Shown one piece after another: positions 1,517 through 33,215 of a stretch of 64,000 nucleotides of DNA; position 1 is the stretch's first letter, and every line of letters begins with the position of its first letter. The notes beneath the pieces are model-generated. The model did not search any database and was not told the DNA's origin. It saw only the letters and a list, made by a program, of their open reading frames with translations. A program made the position numbers and the translations under genes. The DNA lies in the NCBI GenBank assembly GCA_016710285.1, contig JADJXR010000001.1, positions 3,373,338 to 3,437,337 on the forward strand. Reading direction: 5' to 3'. Origin of the DNA: Chlorobiota bacterium. Its GTDB lineage: Bacteria > Bacteroidota > Ignavibacteria > OLB7.

Positions 1517-4091
1517 TCTTCTTCCTCTGCCGGAGTGTCAATCGCGCCGCTGCCATCGGGAAGTTCGGCAAGGAAGGAGGGCTGAGCCGATTCGTGGCCG
1601 CCGTAGCTCCGAAGGCTATCGGCCAGCTTGGCAAGGCGGCGTTGCACAAGGTGGTTGATGGTTCCGGCGGGATAGTTACCACGCGAGTTCGGTTCCCCTG
1701 CGGCAACGCCGGTAAGAATTTCAATCCCCTGGTCAATGGTGGTGACGGGGTAGATGTGGAACTTCCCGGCGGCAACGGCTTCCACCACTTCGTCGCGCAG
1801 CATCAGTTCGGGGATGTTCTGCACGGGGATCATCGCCCCTTGCGTTCCGGTTAGCCCACGCGCTTTGCAGACTTCGTAGAATCCCTCCACCTTCTCCTTC
1901 ACCCCGCCAATCGGTTGGATTTGTCCCCATTGATTCACCGACCCCGTCACCGCCAGGTCCTGCCGAATCGGCACGCCGCTCAGGGCCGAAAGCAGGGCGT
2001 AGATTTCGTGGAGGATGCGCTGTCGCCATCAACGCCGCCGTAGGATTGCTCGAAGACGATGTGGGCCGTCATCGAAAGGGGGCGTTGCTGCGCGAAGCGA
2101 TGCCGCAAAAAACCGGCGATAATCAGCATCCCTTTGTTGTGCAGGCTTCCGCTCATCCGCGCCTCGCGCTCGATGTTGATAATCCCATGCCCCCCAACGG
2201 CCACGGTTGCGGTGATCCGGCTGGGCTTCCCGAAACTGATCTGCCCAACGGAATAGACCGCAAGCCCGTTGATCTGGCCCACCATTCTTCCTTCGGTGTC
2301 AATCAGGAGCGATCCATCAATCATCCGCTCCATGATTTTTTCTTTCCACATGGATTGCCGCTCCACCATTTGCCGGATTGCTTTCTCAACATGGTAGCGG
2401 CCAACGATTTCGGCGGTGTCGCGCTCGGCCCAGAAACTTGCTTCGCGAAGCAAGTCGGCAATGTCGCTGAATCGAAGGGAGATTTTCCGCATATCCCCGG
2501 CTTTCTCCACCGCGTACTCCACCACTGCGGCAACGCCATCGGGATCGAAATGGAGCAGATGTTCTTCGTCCGAGAGTTTGCGGATGAACCGGGCGTACTC
2601 AATCAGGACCGTGTCGGTGCGGGCAATCTCGTAGTCGAATTCGGCACTGATCTTGAAGATTTTCCGGAAGTCTTCCTCCATCGAAAAAAGTGCTTGGTAC
2701 AGCCTGGGGTCGCCGATCATGATCACTTTCACATTCAGGTCAATCGCCTGCGGTTTCATGGCCACCCCTTGCGTGCTGGATTGCACGAAGCTCTCGAACG
2801 GCTGAATCTCCAGCTTTCGGTGAAGCAGCACCCGTTTCAGTGCTTTCCAAACACCAGGTTCGCTAAGCGCGTCGGCGGCGTTGATGATTAAATATCCACC
2901 ATCGGCGCGGAGGATTGCCCCGGCTTTAATCATCAGGAAATCGCTGACCCAAAACCCCTGCTGGGTTGGCACCCGCTCGATGGTTCCAAACAAGTTGAGA
3001 TAGGTGGGGGTGGTCTCGATGATAACCGGCGCGCCGGTGGTTCCGGCGTTGTCCAGCACCACGTTTACTTGATAGGTGCGGAGCGCGCCGTCGTCGCTTG
3101 CTGGCGGTTGTGCTTCGTCGTCGGTGCCCTGGGCGGCGGCTTCGGGCTGGGGTTGCTTGAACAGATCAAGGTTGTTCAGGATGTCGTTGCCCACCTCTTC
3201 AAGGTAAGCGATGACCGCCTCGAACGGAAACCGCATGGCTAAGTCGTCGAGCGTGGCCTCGATCAACAGCTTTGCCGAGGCGGCCTCGAAGTCGCCCAAC
3301 TCTTGCTGAAATTCTTGCGAGAGCTTCATGCCGTTGCGGGCAAGCTGGTACAGGTCGCGGTGGCGGCGGGTGTAGTTTTCGCCGATTGCGCGCGCTTGCT
3401 CGGCGGTGATTGCGTTCTCCTTCACCAGCTGGTCCAGCGCGGCAATCGGATACGCTTTCCCGTTGATAACCGGAAGAATTTCCGGCTGGACGGCTCCATT
3501 GCCGGCCTTCACCTGGCCCAGGGTGAATCCATCGGGGCGGAGTTCCTCCTCGAATGCCCGCAGCAGTTGTTGTTCGCGCTGCTGGAATTCTTCGATGATC
3601 TTCGTGCGTCCGGTGCGGAACGTCTCTTCTTCAAACATCTTCGGTATCCGCCCTTGCAGGAAGCTGATGGCGTCGTGCATGGCGCGTTGGAACGGCGCGG
3701 CTTTCCCTTTTGGGAACTTCAGCAGCGTGGGTTGGTCGGGGTCGTGGAAGTTGTTGACGTAGGCGTAATCGTGGGGAATCTGGCCGTTTGGGGTGATGCG
3801 TTCCAGAATGCTTTTGATGGTTGTCAGCCGTCCGGTTCCGCTAAGGCCACTCACAAAAATGTTGTAGCCGGGGCTGGCGATTTCTGCCCCCATTGTCAGC
3901 GCGTCCAATGCCCGTTGCTGGCCAATGATCCCGTTCAGCGGGTCAACATGGGCGGTGCTGGGGAAGGGGAATGCGGTGGAATCGGCATACCACCGAAGCG
4001 ATTTCACCGGAAGGGACGGGTGCGTTGGGGCCGGAAGAAGCCGCGCAGATTTGGAAGAAGCGGAATCGGTGGAAGCCGGAGTTTTGTTCAT
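1513..4091 (-). pseudogene. Lon-like ATP-dependent S16 protease (YcbZ/LonC-like), interrupted by a -1 frameshift near position 2007
   Basis: The 703-aa N-terminal ORF ends ...SYGGVDGDSASSTKSTPCFRP*. The Lon_C continuation (V)[31 protein letters not shown]... is in another frame as ORF 1513..1974. Inserting one G after ACG restores ...[26 protein letters not shown].... Confidence 0.8.
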
Positions 4092-5724: not shown

Positions 5725-5756
5725 AGGCCAAATTTCACAAGCGTGAGGTTTGGCCT
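5725..5756 (+). terminator. hairpin AGGCCAAA-N16-TTTGGCCT downstream of glyQS
   Basis: 8-bp perfect stem seen in the sequence. The downstream tract is T-rich but not a clean T-run. The GTG at 5743 used by the ORF track lies inside this hairpin. Confidence 0.3.
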
Positions 5757-5997
5757 TCTGCTATCTGATTTATTGCAAGATGGAGCCGACGGGGTAAAAA
5801 AATGGAGGAGAAGGCGGATAGATTATGGGGGACTCCTGTCCTATGTGAGGCAGAATAAATGCCTTGAACGGAACAACAGAGCGTCAAGGATGAAGATTTT
5901 TTTTGAAGAGACAGGGGAAATGAAAAAAATTTTCTTGCTTTGTCTTGGAAATCCCTTATTATTGCTCCCCGATTCACAGCTGACCAATCTACGTATC

Positions 5998-7233
5998 ATG
6001 GCACGTCATCGAACCGGCAAAATCAGCGAGAGTGTTTACCTACTGCGCCAGATGGAAGAACGCCATCGTGGCCAGCCAGCCGAGGAGCGGGTTCGTGCCT
6101 TGCGGATGTTGAAAGAAGACCCCAACCTATCGGTGCAACAGCTTGCTGTGGAGATGGACTGCTCCGAACGGACGATCCGCCGCTGGTGGGCACTCTACCA
6201 AAAAGGGGGATTGGAGGCTGTAGTCCAGGAAAAAGTGAAATCCACGGCGGTGGTCGCGAAGTTGGGGGATGAGAAAGTTGCCGAGCTTGGCCAGAAACTG
6301 GCACGCCGGGAACTGACCAGTTTGGCCGAAGTGCAGGGGTGGCTGAAGTCGGAATGTAATCTCGATTATAGTATCCCTGGCGTCTGGCATCTTGTACGCC
6401 GCACCTTCAAAGTTGAGCGCTCTTGGGCTCCTCGCACGGACGCACACGGCTGGCAAGGTGGCGGTGCCGATGGACTGGTTCCGGCAAAAATAGTCCGTTT
6501 TTTGAATTCTTTGCCGCTGCTGGGGGAAACACGGGATCGCATCCTCATTTTTAGAAGCGCGCTCCAAGAACTTTTCCCAGAGATTGATCGGGTGGTTATC
6601 AATGTGAATACTTCGTTTGATCTCCAAAACCCGGAAACTTATTCTGGTGGAGTGTCTATTACCCAAGCAATCAATGTTGAGGAGCAGAGAACAGGCGTTG
6701 TCGTTACAAGCTTTTCTTCCGACGACAACGTGGAGCAGCTGATTCAAGCAATGCGAGGGCAGGGGTATCCCCTGGATGATTTCCATGCTCCCAGCTATAT
6801 CAACTTTAGTTTTGGCAACGACGGGTATATCGGGACGATTTTCCTTTTCCGGGTAATAGAAAAACCAGCGATTTCTTCCGAAACTCTCAGCGTTTTTGCT
6901 TCTTTGGATTCGTTCTTCCAGTTCATGCTTTTCGATTTAGTGGCGCATCATAGGGCCACTAAACCGGTGGACGTTGCCTTCTCGGCAGCATTAAAACAGC
7001 TATCGGTGGAGAGCAAGCTGACGCTACAGGAGCGGAAGGTGGTGATCCATCAGTTGCTGGGGGGATCCTATAAGGAGATAGCGGATCTGCTGGATATCTC
7101 GGTTGCTACCCTGAAAAAGCATATCACGAGCATCCATACAAAAACCGGGACCCGCAGCCAGGGGGAGCTTTTCGCGAAGTACTTCACGCCGCGGCTTACT
7201 CCGGTTCTGACGATGCTGAACGAAACTCTGTGA
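5998..7233 (+). CDS. LuxR-family transcriptional regulator with an N-terminal IS630-transposase-like HTH domain
   Basis: The C-terminus LTLQERKVVIHQLLGGSYKEIADLLDISVATLKKHITSIHTKTG is a GerE/LuxR HTH. The N-terminus (LRMLKEDPNLSVQQLAVEMDCSERTIRRWWALYQKGG ... LAEVQGWLKSECNLDYSIPGVWHLVRRTFKVERSW) resembles the IS630 transposase DNA-binding region. The start is uncertain (ATG at 5890, 5920 or 5998). Confidence 0.7.
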   Translation: MARHRTGKISESVYLLRQMEERHRGQPAEERVRALRMLKEDPNLSVQQLAVEMDCSERTIRRWWALYQKGGLEAVVQEKVKSTAVVAKLGDEKVAELGQKLARRELTSLAEVQGWLKSECNLDYSIPGVWHLVRRTFKVERSWAPRTDAHGWQGGGADGLVPAKIVRFLNSLPLLGETRDRILIFRSALQELFPEIDRVVINVNTSFDLQNPETYSGGVSITQAINVEEQRTGVVVTSFSSDDNVEQLIQAMRGQGYPLDDFHAPSYINFSFGNDGYIGTIFLFRVIEKPAISSETLSVFASLDSFFQFMLFDLVAHHRATKPVDVAFSAALKQLSVESKLTLQERKVVIHQLLGGSYKEIADLLDISVATLKKHITSIHTKTGTRSQGELFAKYFTPRLTPVLTMLNETL

Positions 7234-8194: not shown

Positions 8195-8695
8195 ATGAAT
8201 TCCATCCGAATATCCGCTTGTTCGCTGCTTGCCCTCTGCATGATTACTCTTGCAGGGATGGCGCAGCCGAACAACACAGGCAAAGGAAAGCAGGTTTCGA
8301 TCTCGACAAATGGTGGTTATAGTATGGTTTCCGACGACGGAGGAAACACGTGGAGGGTGGTTGACAACGCAATGGCCGAGCAATTACGCGACGACTTGGG
8401 GCGGCAGCTTCAAGGGCTAACAACCGGCGCGATGATTGGCCGAACAAAAGTTCGGTTAGATAGAAGTTCGGCGATTGCCACAGTAACGTTCCAAGCCCCC
8501 TCCGCCGGCATCGTAACGTTAACGCTGCATGATATTCAAGGGGTGGAGGTTCTTCGCCAGGAGATGGAGATAGCAGAAGGGGGTGAGCAACTCACCGCCC
8601 TGGATGTTGCCCAGCTAAAAACAGGAACGTACGTCCTAAGAATCAACAGCAGCAACGTGATGATTGGCGGCGGAAAAATTGTGATTTCGCGATAA
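8195..8695 (+). CDS. small secreted protein with a T9SS C-terminal sorting domain
   Basis: Signal peptide and a C-terminal ...LKTGTYVLRINSSNVMIGGGKIVISR, which resembles a T9SS C-terminal domain. Confidence 0.65.
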   Translation: MNSIRISACSLLALCMITLAGMAQPNNTGKGKQVSISTNGGYSMVSDDGGNTWRVVDNAMAEQLRDDLGRQLQGLTTGAMIGRTKVRLDRSSAIATVTFQAPSAGIVTLTLHDIQGVEVLRQEMEIAEGGEQLTALDVAQLKTGTYVLRINSSNVMIGGGKIVISR

Positions 8696-9077
8696 CGTAG
8701 ATTTCTTAATAGCCAGATTTTTCTTTGACATACCAGCACATTGCGTTTACGTGCTAATAATCGGAGCGCCCGAACGGCATAGGTTAGCTAACAGTGTTCA
8801 CCACGGCCGTTAGTTAATGCTTCGCTGCAGAGCATATCGCCTTCCTCTGGCGAGATGACTGTACCTTGGCTCTGCACTGGACTTTGAATCCTTCCTCTAC
8901 ACAACAACGGGGTTCAAAAAGCCTGGCAAACCGATGACAAAGCAACGGAACGCAAACCGGCTTATATGGCTCTTTTTCTTAAATGCCTGTAAGCCTTTCA
9001 GCCGAGATTCCCAGTGGAAAGCTTGCCTGTACCTCCGCAAGATACCATCGGAAATACGACGCTGAACAACCATCAAT

Positions 9078-9170
9078 GGGGTGACGGCCGAACCTGAAGT
9101 TCCTCAAAAAAACCTGCTCTGTACCTTCAGCAGTTTTTAGGGCAAGGCCGTCACCCCAGATGTTTTTTCT
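9078..9170 (+). terminator. long GC-rich hairpin (GGGGTGACGGCC ... GGCCGTCACCCC, inner CTGAAG/CTTCAG) followed by TGTTTTTTCT; terminator-like 3' end of a possible non-coding transcript
   Basis: 12-bp perfect outer stem at 9078-9089 and 9146-9157, then a T6 run at 9163-9168. It lies in a 620-nt gap with no convincing ORF. Confidence 0.4.
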
Positions 9171-9319
9171 CACCGCCATAATTCCACACCGCCATAGCTT
9201 TGCTACCTCCGCGACTCTCATCTTGATCGGGTTCCGTATTTCAGCAATAATGAAGAAGCACTTTGGGGTTACATTGCTCATGTAGTCTGCACCCGTTCAT
9301 TTATTGGGGACAACAGAAC

Positions 9320-10228
9320 ATGAGCAACACCAAATGGCACTCTGCTATTGCTGCACTCCTATTGCTCCTTCCTGCCGCAGCAGTATTGCCGCAAAGCAAA
9401 GAAGCATCGAAAGACCGCGCCAACGAATATTTCCAACAAGGTGCCTGGGAACAGGCGGCCACGGAGTATCAGGCACTTCTCACCGTTGATCCACAATTCC
9501 GGCAAGGATGGTTTCGGTTAGGTTATGCACAGCATAGCCTGGGGAATTTTGCTGCCGCCGCCACCGCCTACCAAAAAGCAATCGAGCTTGGCGCGCCGCC
9601 AATTGCCCACTATAATCTTGCGTGTTCCTACTCCCGGCAAGGCGAACAGGAATTGGCATTAGCCACGCTGGAGAAAGCACTCAACAATGGCTACACCCAG
9701 CAAACTTCTCTGGCAAGCGATCCAGACTTTGCATCGCTGGTGAGTAATCCGCGATTGAAAGAATTAGACCAGAAAATGCTGCTTGCCGCGCTGCCATGCC
9801 AGCACGATCCACGGTATCGGGAATTTGATTTTTGGATTGGCGAATGGGATGTGTTCAACACCGCTGGGCAGAAAGTGGGAACCAATAGTGTTCAACAAAT
9901 ATTGGGGAGTTGTGTGCTGCTGGAAAATTGGAGCAGTGCATCCGGCTCGCAGGGGAAGAGCTTTAACACCTTTAATCGCTCAACGGGAAAATGGCAACAA
10001 ACATGGGTTGACGATCAAGGAACCGTGCTTGAGCTTGCCGGAAATTTGAAGGGAGCAGTGCTGAGTTTTGAGGGAACCACCCGCGACACTGCCGGAAAAG
10101 AAACCTACCACCGTCTGACATTTACCTCGATTGACCCAAACACCGTACGCCAGTTATGGGAGCAATCTTCCGACAAAGGGGCAACGTGGAGTTCAGTTTT
10201 TGATGGAAAATATGTGAGGAAAAAATAG
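9320..10228 (+). CDS. TPR-repeat exported protein
   Basis: Signal peptide MSNTKWHSAIAALLLLLPAAAV. TPR-like helices (YFQQGAWEQAATEYQALL..., LGYAQHSLGNFAAAATAYQKAIEL). The ORF track start at 9263 is a TTG. Confidence 0.75.
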   Translation: MSNTKWHSAIAALLLLLPAAAVLPQSKEASKDRANEYFQQGAWEQAATEYQALLTVDPQFRQGWFRLGYAQHSLGNFAAAATAYQKAIELGAPPIAHYNLACSYSRQGEQELALATLEKALNNGYTQQTSLASDPDFASLVSNPRLKELDQKMLLAALPCQHDPRYREFDFWIGEWDVFNTAGQKVGTNSVQQILGSCVLLENWSSASGSQGKSFNTFNRSTGKWQQTWVDDQGTVLELAGNLKGAVLSFEGTTRDTAGKETYHRLTFTSIDPNTVRQLWEQSSDKGATWSSVFDGKYVRKK

Positions 10229-10690
10229 CAAAAACGAAGAAGCATAATCGCGATTTTTCCCTTGCGCTCGCCTCGGCAGCTCGCGTATCTTCGTGCAAGG
10301 TATGATAATCCTTCGTCAGCTTGTTCGCATTGCTCAACCCTGATGAATTCCCGTACCGAATCAACGTTCCTTCCCTGCTCGGCAACGTTGAAATTCTTTG
10401 AGGTCTCTTTTTTCTAAAGATCGAGGTAGAAAAAAGGGTAATACCTGAAAACCCTCGTGAGCAGTATCGGTTGTTTACCCATATCAGCCGATCATTCGGC
10501 CCAAGTTCGTCCGCCATCTCGCCGTTCTTTTCTTTTCGCAAGAAACCGTTGCGCATTTGCGCAAACCGTTCCACGCTCTCGTTCCCTTGCTCGCAAAGGG
10601 GGAATGCGGATGGTGATTCTAAAGCAACCAACGGGCACACGCCAGGCTGCTGTTCGTTCGCACGTTTCGTTCACAACAACTGTATAACCC

Positions 10691-12159: not shown

Positions 12160-12174
12160 GAATGAAAAACAGAA

Positions 12175-12203
12175 TAAGGCGGATAATACGATTATCCGCC
12201 TTA
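12175..12203. promoter_or_regulatory. perfect 29-nt palindrome TAAGGCGGATAAT-ACG-ATTATCCGCCTTA between the Cys-rich gene and the AT-rich delta-60 gene
   Basis: 13-bp perfect inverted repeat read directly. No T-run on the plus strand; T-rich only on the minus side. Confidence 0.4.
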
Positions 12204-12242
12204 CTCTAAAAAAATATCACAGCAAATTCAAGGAGTAAAGAC

Positions 12243-14776: not shown

Positions 14777-14808
14777 CATCCGGCAGGTAAGCATTTACCT
14801 GCCGGATG
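14777..14808. terminator. perfect 14-bp hairpin CATCCGGCAGGTAA-GCAT-TTACCTGCCGGATG between the two delta-60 paralogs
   Basis: Read directly. No U-tract, so intrinsic-terminator function is uncertain. Confidence 0.35.
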
Positions 14809-17443: not shown

Positions 17444-17488
17444 TAAAAAAACAACAGCGTCCCACAACACTTTTGCTTGTGTTGTGGG
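17444..17488 (-). terminator. Rho-independent terminator of the ABC exporter operon (CCCACAACAC-N8-GTGTTGTGGG plus T7 on the minus strand)
   Basis: 10-bp perfect stem. A7 on the plus strand at 17444-17450 reads as T7 on the minus strand directly after the hairpin. Confidence 0.6.
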
Positions 17489-17523
17489 ACGCTTGGTTAT
17501 CGCGCACTTTTCCGGAGGTTTTT

Positions 17524-32993: not shown

Positions 32994-33177
32994 TGGGGGG
33001 GGTGAGAACTTTCGCCCCTATCGTTGTCTTTATGATGGTAGGATTGAGCGCCGAACACGGTTTGCGGCCGGGGCGAAGCTGCCAAGATGGTAATGGTGAC
33101 AGTGGGAGAGCAGGGAAAATCATCAATTGCCACCCATTATCGGAAAGCGGCTCCGTTTCTGCCCAACCGAAATCCAA

Positions 33178-33215
33178 CAAGGGGAACCAACGCTGGTTCC
33201 CCTTGTTTCGTTTTG
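33178..33215 (+). terminator. second terminator-like hairpin (CAAGGGGAACCA-ACGC-TGGTTCCCCTTG plus TTTCGTTTTG)
   Basis: 12-bp perfect stem and a T-rich tail about 185 nt after the first terminator, with no ORF in between. Confidence 0.55.

Follow-up and report, generated by a model that had tools for sequence, protein, structure and literature searches.

A candidate structured non-coding RNA of about 450 nt conserved downstream of a T9SS-cargo cassette in uncultured Chlorobi bacteria

In the 64-kb stretch of Chlorobiota bacterium DNA analyzed here (the window), a gap of 624 nucleotides (nt) separates two plus-strand genes, one for a protein of 166 amino acids (aa; 8195–8695, stop codon 8693–8695) and one for a TPR/DUF1579 protein (ATG at 9320). 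Within this gap, positions 8722–9168 carry a conserved non-coding element that probably encodes a plus-strand structured non-coding RNA (ncRNA) of about 450 nt, present in a small clade of uncultured "Chlorobi bacterium" organisms (OLB7, CHB2 and related metagenome-assembled genomes, MAGs). The element is single-copy and fixed at the 3′ end of a gene cassette for type IX secretion system (T9SS) cargo; it is conserved between sharp boundaries, folds consistently, pairs best on one strand and does not code for protein. A preliminary description of the same DNA had seen here a gap of about 620 nt with reduced GC content, downstream of a T9SS cargo gene, and had proposed a plus-strand RNA of roughly 440 nt or a structured 3′ untranslated region (UTR) ending at a long hairpin. 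These points held up: the upstream 166-aa protein gave a weak match to Por_Secre_tail (the T9SS C-terminal sorting domain), the GC content of the gap is slightly lower than that of its flanks (0.47–0.50 vs 0.51–0.57), and a conserved unit of about 447 nt with covariation and plus-strand pairing lies downstream of the T9SS cassette. Transcription itself, the 5′ end, the partner and the function of the element are inferred. Many Logan contigs, as well as MAGs that bear the name Chlorobi bacterium OLB7 or "Chlorobi bacterium", contain the gap in identical sequence; a literature search under the assembly and organism names returned no match.

The decisive loci were reached via homologues of the 238-aa protein encoded upstream (59–69% identical). 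Syntenic loci came from the Chlorobi bacterium MAG GCA_016788565.1, from a MAG labelled Armatimonadetes and from ENA, JGI and Logan contigs. They share the gene order Lon, glycyl-tRNA synthetase (GlyRS), helix-turn-helix (HTH) regulator, 229–234-aa protein and 166-aa T9SS protein, to which some loci add a pair of 258 and 178 aa, and their neighboring proteins are 59–90% identical to those of the window. The element was found in every syntenic locus and on the same strand (nhmmer E 1e-56 to 1e-95; seven of seven further distinct sequences), the match covering gap positions ~19–476, that is, window positions ~8714–9171. The conserved stretch opens with TTTGACAT and closes with the U-run behind the terminator stem; both boundaries are sharp, and the flanks outside both ends cannot be aligned between copies. 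The distance from the stop codon of the cassette's last gene to the start of the element was 19–65 nt in eight loci measured across the lineages. Eleven distinct copies aligned at a mean identity of 83%. Compared with the window, the relatives retain 75–78% nucleotide identity in the element, 67–73% in the 238-aa gene and 83–86% in the 166-aa gene, with 28–38% of the four-fold degenerate sites of the latter being different. Within the OLB7/CHB2 clade, there is no more than a hint of constraint: the element diverges by 3.3%, and the four-fold sites of five flanking genes, taken together, by 9.1%, but those of the nearest gene alone by only 4.6%. Other anchors did not lead to these copies. A GlyRS-based scan of GTDB species genomes returned relatives of at most 68% identity, not including the source species, and nhmmer detected no element in them. 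Synteny searches based on the TPR protein reached only near-identical strains and homologues of about 65–70% identity. The latter lack the element, which for a time therefore seemed clade-specific, before the comparison via the 238-aa protein.

Application of RNAalifold to the 11 aligned copies predicted 93 consensus pairs, with 98.4% of the alignment cells paired. Thirteen of these pairs exhibited compensatory double changes, as against zero to one in slid controls, in which the 3′ partners were moved by 1–3 columns and the paired cells fell to 27–43%; none of 500 column shuffles reached the observed values. The covarying pairs are located in helices P2 and P4, hairpins A, C and D, the inner hairpin of helix H, and the inner helix and outer stem (three pairs) of the terminator domain, ten of the thirteen lying upstream of the terminator. 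The comparison of related genomes that the preliminary description had recommended thus yielded an element conserved in all syntenic loci with 13 compensatory pairs. As in structured ncRNAs generally, the fold is supported by compensatory changes and there is no conserved open reading frame (ORF). The OLB7/CHB2 clade alone shows one compensatory pair. In a random-mutation control for the OLB7 clade, the real substitutions preserved the folding energy (0 of 200 random sets were as good), in one direction only and alike for both strands.

In the consensus fold, a 5′ domain (8741–8955) is closed by four nested helices. P2 (8741–8748/8948–8955) is perfectly complementary in all copies, P4 (8768–8770/8925–8927) has two covarying pairs, and P3 (8760–8764/8931–8935) and P5 (8776–8778/8921–8923) never vary. 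Hairpin A (8783–8818) comprises 12 pairs, of which three show compensatory and three one-sided G-U changes (columns 67–79 with 90–102). Helix H (8821–8881) pairs 8821–8833 with 8869–8881 and emerged as the same helix from the independent fold of every lineage (e.g., UUCG.CUGCAGAGC/GCUCUGCA.CUGGA in the window vs UCCGGGGCAGGGU/GCUCUGUCCUGGA in locus L108). Its inner hairpin (8837–8853, loop UUCCUCU) covaries at the closing pair, and its internal loop at 8859–8866 carries CUGUACCU. Hairpin C (8883–8918) exposes the invariant CCUUCCUCUACA in its loop and underwent a change from A-U to G-C (columns 173/200). Further downstream, hairpin D (8959–8995) formed in all lineages, with stem changes on both sides, shifting bulges and an inner pair that changed from G-C to A-U; its loop reads UCCUCC in relatives outside the OLB7/CHB2 clade. 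Hairpin E (9003–9058) combines a lower stem whose sequence varies between lineages with an invariant apical helix, CUUGC/GCAAG (9022–9026/9037–9041), which presents the loop CUGUACCUCC at 9027–9036. Three helices (H, D and E) were mis-registered by MAFFT; folding each lineage alone recovered all three, with different sequence on both strands of the helix. The pairing is directional: read as the minus strand, the paired cells drop from 98.4% to 92.4%, owing to 67 G-U cells. Fold z-scores for 8720–9175 were −5.2 on the plus and −1.3 on the minus strand, or −2.6 and −0.2 when the 3′ hairpin was left out. Pairing and U-rich tails together identify the plus strand as the predicted RNA strand.

The 3′ domain (9071–9168) is a branched hairpin resembling an intrinsic terminator, as judged by its fold, the covariation of its outer stem and its U-rich tails. 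The long imperfect hairpin with a GC-rich outer stem of 12 bp at 9078–9157 that had been described before was readily recovered: its arms are GGGGTGACGGCC (9078–9089) and GGCCGTCACCCC (9146–9157), the pair U9077–A9158 lengthens the stem to 13 bp (9077–9089/9146–9158), CAUC (9071–9074) and GAUG (9159–9162) extend it by 4 bp, and TTTTTT (UUUUUU in the RNA; 9163–9168) follows directly 3′ of the stem. The minimum free energy of the hairpin is −43.6 kcal/mol (z = −4.2; none of 200 shuffles folded as well). It is the longest inverted repeat of the window, in which its arms have no further occurrence. Covariation was observed at three pairs of the outer stem (C-G/U-A, A-U/G-U/G-C and G-C/G-U/A-U) as well as at one or more pairs of the inner helix, and a U-rich tail is present in every complete copy. 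The sequences of the inner CTGAAG/CTTCAG helix proposed earlier do exist (9094–9099 and 9125–9130), but the comparative model prefers another inner fold, in which an A-run (9106–9112) pairs with a U-run (9134–9138) and UCUGUACCUU is placed in the loop of the inner hairpin. Like a Rho-independent terminator, the domain consists of a G+C-rich stem with an immediate U-run downstream of a same-strand operon, and it is conserved with compensatory changes. It differs from such terminators in that the stem encloses a conserved, branched interior of 56 nt with invariant loops instead of a small apical loop of 3–8 nt, and in that the terminator represents only the last fifth of the conserved unit; a scan with a loop limit of 8 reported no terminator here. 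Other long perfect-stem hairpins in the window have stems of 14–18 bp, loops of 3–8 nt and T-rich tails (17456–17493, 12170–12208 and 14777–14808 on the minus strand, 33176–33207 on the plus strand), which suggests that this organism uses strong intrinsic terminators. In locus L112, the 3′ hairpin domain is duplicated in tandem: immediately behind the first copy lies another (3653–3741), which has diverged and reads CUGAAUACCCU where the CUGUACCUU motif has decayed; it is followed by a separate simple terminator hairpin (AATGCCCGGC...GCCGGGCATT).

Two short pyrimidine-rich motifs recur along the element, namely CTGTACCT (RNA CUGUACCU) at 8859, 9027 and 9119, and TTCCTC (RNA UUCCUC) at 8842, 8892 and 9100 (P < 0.001 vs shuffles for each). 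All six copies fall into invariant columns and into unpaired positions of the consensus or per-lineage folds, so that, as in sponge or decoy RNAs, the same short motif is displayed unpaired in several hairpins. Invariant loops on covarying stems form the pattern expected if a partner recognizes the loops. We thus infer that they are recognition sites for an RNA-binding protein or a purine-rich RNA, the element being a regulatory decoy or antisense RNA. Similarity to the anti-Shine-Dalgarno end of 16S rRNA was also noted for the loop CUGUACCUCC/GUACCUCC, which is extended by a U to GUACCUCCU in relatives.

The 5′ edge of conservation is marked by TTGACA (8725–8730), which is preceded by A/T-rich, non-conserved sequence. 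This hexamer, singled out already in the preliminary description, is invariant in nine of the 11 copies and reads CTGACA in L106 and L104; it may be either a −35 box that no canonical −10 accompanies or the single-stranded 5′ end of the RNA. As for the promoter assumed earlier, both of its motifs exist, TTGACA lying 2 nt away from the position given for it and TAATAAT at 8755–8761, but the spacer of 24 nt does not correspond to sigma-70 geometry and hence not to a canonical promoter. The hexamer 17 nt downstream of TTGACA is TACGTG, TATGTG or TCAAGT across the copies. Bacteroidetes-type promoters consist of a −33 TTTG and a −7 TAnnTTTG; no such arrangement, with TAnnTTTG about 19–21 nt after TTTG, occurs in 8600–9400, and the window contains only 12 TAnnTTTG sites on both strands vs ~31 expected at random by a rough estimate. 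The only promoter-like site that a promoter scan reported in the gap is TTGATC-17-AATAAT at 9223–9251. Sequence inspection revealed no canonical intrinsic terminator between the stop codon of the cassette and the element.

We propose that transcription of the element would run codirectionally with the upstream operon, which comprises the HTH regulator, the 238-aa protein and the 166-aa T9SS-cargo protein. Most simply, it would form the 3′ end of this operon by read-through and might be processed to a stable RNA. Alternatively, it could be a small RNA (sRNA) gene of its own with a non-canonical promoter at the conserved TTGACA edge, in which case TG-n-TAATAA at 8752–8760 would place the RNA start near 8767, just before P4. 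Transcription would stop at the branched hairpin and U-run (9071–9168), which would also insulate the TPR gene with its own leader. The transcript would then fold into the multi-helix 5′ domain, the two central hairpins and the terminator domain, and would act through its six invariant loops (CUGUACCU and UUCCUC, three times each). It is also conceivable, if distinctly speculative, that a new class of large (~450 nt) bacterial ncRNAs, tied to a variable T9SS-cargo cassette in Chlorobi/Ignavibacteria-like bacteria, has its first member in this element, whose six pyrimidine-rich loops would titrate an RNA-binding protein (candidate: an RRM-type chaperone that would fill the role of Hfq or CsrA in this superphylum) or serve as multiple antisense seeds.

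Several observations weigh against the interpretation as a structured ncRNA or against parts of it. No sigma-70 promoter with hexamers 16–18 nt apart was found at the 5′ edge, where the promoter scan paired TTGACA with no −10. The outermost helix P1 is ambiguous, as either 8734–8738 or 8998–9002 can pair with 9060–9064, and covariation in P2 is confined to a single event. As the 11 copies derive from no more than about four deep lineages, the number of independent covariation events is limited. In the OLB7/CHB2 clade, the body of the element differs by 4.1% and the four-fold sites of the adjacent 166-aa gene by 4.6%. With regard to antisense action, few genes near the locus have Shine-Dalgarno sequences, and the complement AGGTACAG has only one other occurrence in the window (minus strand, 36042), with no complementary target standing out; the partner is therefore left as a protein or a purine-rich RNA.

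The similar divergence of the element body and of four-fold sites within OLB7/CHB2 would be accounted for if the gap were an ordinary spacer that ends in the intrinsic terminator of the upstream operon and owes its conservation to close relatedness. Other gene ends of the window likewise carry long perfect-stem terminators, and long gaps are common in the neighborhood. Against this stands the alignment of 447 nt at 75–78% identity in relatives whose 238-aa proteins are only 59–70% identical, while the sequence just outside is unalignable. The loops are invariant whereas the stems vary, and the covariation upstream of the terminator, together with the sharp boundaries, largely refutes a bare terminator preceded by a neutral spacer. 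We consequently regard this explanation as improbable.

Another possibility is a role at the DNA level: the element could be a replication-related site, a miniature mobile element or a site of recombination for an optional two-gene cassette. Presence and absence of that cassette map exactly to the 5′ edge of the element in two species clades, and a long inverted repeat is at hand. Yet the element is single-copy, as neither the rest of the window nor 1.3 Mb of sequence from the relatives' loci yielded another, in contrast to the many dispersed copies of miniature inverted-repeat transposable elements or repetitive extragenic palindromes. Searched with the hairpin-arm pattern, 241 million metagenome records gave only two matches, both unrelated and high in GC, and viral contigs gave none; two invariant 15-mers produced chance matches only in the viral contigs, and phage and plasmid collections gave no match either. 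On inspection of the alignments, neither terminal inverted repeats nor target-site duplications were noticed at either end of the conserved unit. Moreover, the covariation has the pattern expected of an RNA, and 67 cells are G-U pairs, which can form on the plus strand alone. A role at the DNA level is very improbable. A reading of the hairpin as an integron attC site was rejected upon inspection, as R′′/R′ core sites are not present and no repeated hairpin follows other cassette genes. In both species clades (L006 1486–2823; L020/L021; L106–L110), the place where the homologous two-gene cassette is found or missing is precisely the interval that separates the 166-aa gene from the element (window 8695–8720). 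It encodes proteins of 256–258 aa and of 177–178 aa, the latter with a lipoprotein-like N-terminus; between the clades the cassette is 67–79% identical. In L006, L020 and L021, this pair stands behind the 166-aa gene, and the sequences become homologous to the window again at ~8720, just upstream of TTGACA. The optional cassette reflects either a long-standing polymorphism or a concentration of recombination (a hot spot) where the element begins at its 5′ side.

A cis-acting 5′ leader (riboswitch or attenuator) of the TPR-DUF1579 gene, with an aptamer at 8760–9060 and the hairpin as expression platform, would match the succession of structured region, terminator and same-strand gene 150 nt downstream, and in the L006 variant the element indeed has a different gene upstream but still the TPR gene as its neighbor. 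A riboswitch, however, would call for a constant same-strand gene downstream, and in the related species the element is not beside the TPR gene: the gene beyond it in L104–L109, L112 and L113 is a convergent DUF2279 gene, an uncharacterized minus-strand gene or, in L107, an unrelated Ig-like gene. Conversely, TPR homologues of ~65–70% identity have only a 100-nt leader directly after a pirin gene. The synteny in relatives thus refutes the reading of the element as such a leader, which we consider extremely unlikely.

The preliminary description had recognized no convincing ORF on either strand, and our results agree. The only sizeable ORF, 100 aa long (80 aa from Met21), lies on the minus strand at 8979–9281 and overlaps the terminator domain of the RNA; it has been deposited as a "hypothetical protein" in two NCBI MAGs (IPM61_12480, MBK8912130.1, MBX7217097.1). 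That the conservation is due to a real small protein encoded here could be argued from the annotation, from the intact frame in the window, L006, L020 and L021, and from 7 of 12 variable sites falling on third codon positions (counted from the alignment). The discovery of homologues would have spoken for a gene, but the sole HMMER match among 1.84 billion (1.84e9) representative proteins was the ORF itself, and neither the ORF nor any stop-free segment in all frames matched a Pfam or NCBIfam family. Five independent assemblies of Chlorobi bacterium CHB2, the sister lineage, whose TPR protein is 93% identical, show the start codon ATG changed to ATA and an extra A in the run 9106–9112, resulting in a +1 frameshift. 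The N-terminal part of the ORF, one third of its length, lies outside the conserved element. Single-base indels are common in the relatives, and their stop-free stretches differ in frame and position between lineages. The codon-usage score, between those of real genes and shadow ORFs, is ambiguous to poor. We therefore rejected the ORF as a gene, a reading with next to no probability; the deposited protein is probably a spurious gene call over the RNA gene.

The element was next compared with known RNAs. The Infernal/Rfam scan recommended in the preliminary description was run with the 4227 covariance models of Rfam 15, including RNase P, tmRNA, signal recognition particle (SRP) RNA, 6S, Chlorobi-1, OLE, GOLLD, HEARO, ROOL and riboswitches. 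No family reached threshold: the whole window gave 0 matches at the gathering thresholds, and 8300–9700 gave three noise matches at E ≤ 10, the best being the plant miRNA MIR842 with 26.8 bits vs a cut-off of 85. At E ≤ 1, the loci of three relatives gave only miRNA-type noise and an unrelated weak match elsewhere. ARAGORN found no tRNA or tmRNA. The earlier statement that RNase P, tmRNA and SRP RNA motifs could not be matched agrees with these scans.

In its position, the element is reminiscent of the enterobacterial CpxQ, SroC and DapZ, 3′-UTR-derived sRNAs of 60–150 nt that share the terminator of their mRNA. It likewise stands directly after a same-strand gene (19–65 nt, eight loci), ends at the operon's first downstream intrinsic terminator and has no evident canonical promoter of its own. 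It differs in its length of ~450 nt, its multi-domain fold and its Bacteroidota/Chlorobiota hosts, and there is no sequence or structural homology. CsrB/CsrC and RsmY/RsmZ are protein-sponge RNAs with repeated loop motifs. The element resembles them in that several hairpins expose one short invariant unpaired motif while the stems vary, and in its end at an intrinsic terminator. Its repeated motifs, CUGUACCU and UUCCUC, are however pyrimidine-rich and present in only three copies each, as opposed to the CsrA-type A(N)GGA, and none of these families matched in Rfam. RsaE/RoxS and RNAIII of Firmicutes are sRNAs whose pyrimidine- or C-rich loops pair with ribosome-binding sites. The element shares with them multiple CU-rich loops, one being anti-Shine-Dalgarno-like, but it is much larger, most genes near it are without a Shine-Dalgarno sequence and the window offers no complementary target. 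Like OLE, GOLLD, HEARO, ROOL, raiA and Chlorobi-1, it is an orphan RNA candidate of several hundred nt with covariation support and a narrow lineage; their Rfam models, however, match neither the window copy nor the three relatives, and the gene context differs. The element belongs to none of the systems compared and is most suitably classified as a new family of structured bacterial ncRNAs whose known distribution is narrow. To our knowledge, RNA-based regulation is almost unexplored in Chlorobi/Ignavibacteria-like lineages, which are abundant in wastewater and anammox reactors and are not known to have the classical Hfq/CsrA systems. A single-copy element of ~450 nt with covarying helices, repeated invariant loops and a fixed place after a secreted-protein cassette would offer a testable entry point to such regulation, since a defined transcript, defined single-stranded recognition motifs and a partner that binds them are all predicted.

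Downstream of the element, a separate feature was identified at 9207–9319 (plus strand), the conserved promoter or 5′ leader of the TPR-DUF1579 gene. Only these last ~100 nt of the gap (~9207–9308) are kept upstream of the TPR homologues of ~65–70% identity, where the pirin gene precedes (L017 1015–1116, L016 132–233, L019 382–451, L018 170–252). The blocks ATCAGCAATAAYGAAGAAG, GGTGCTAC and TCTGCACCCG are nearly invariant, and a GGUGC/GCACC hairpin is possible, with no covariation. The leader probably functions as promoter, operator or 5′ UTR signal. That the gap might be what is left of the pirin gene located ahead of TPR in relatives, now a pseudogene, was discarded, as no trace of that gene was found. 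Beyond the TPR gene, another gap of ~460 nt (10229–10690) was noted, in which some annotations place a 172-aa minus-strand ORF (10122–10640) with no Pfam match. On the upstream side, the Lon-like protease and the HTH/sigma-70-region-4 regulator (window ~5743–7233) appear as one gene or as two to three pieces, depending on the assembly (2193–4574 in L001 and L003 vs 2193–4772 in L002). Such differences between calls in MAGs of the same species suggest frameshift or assembly differences.

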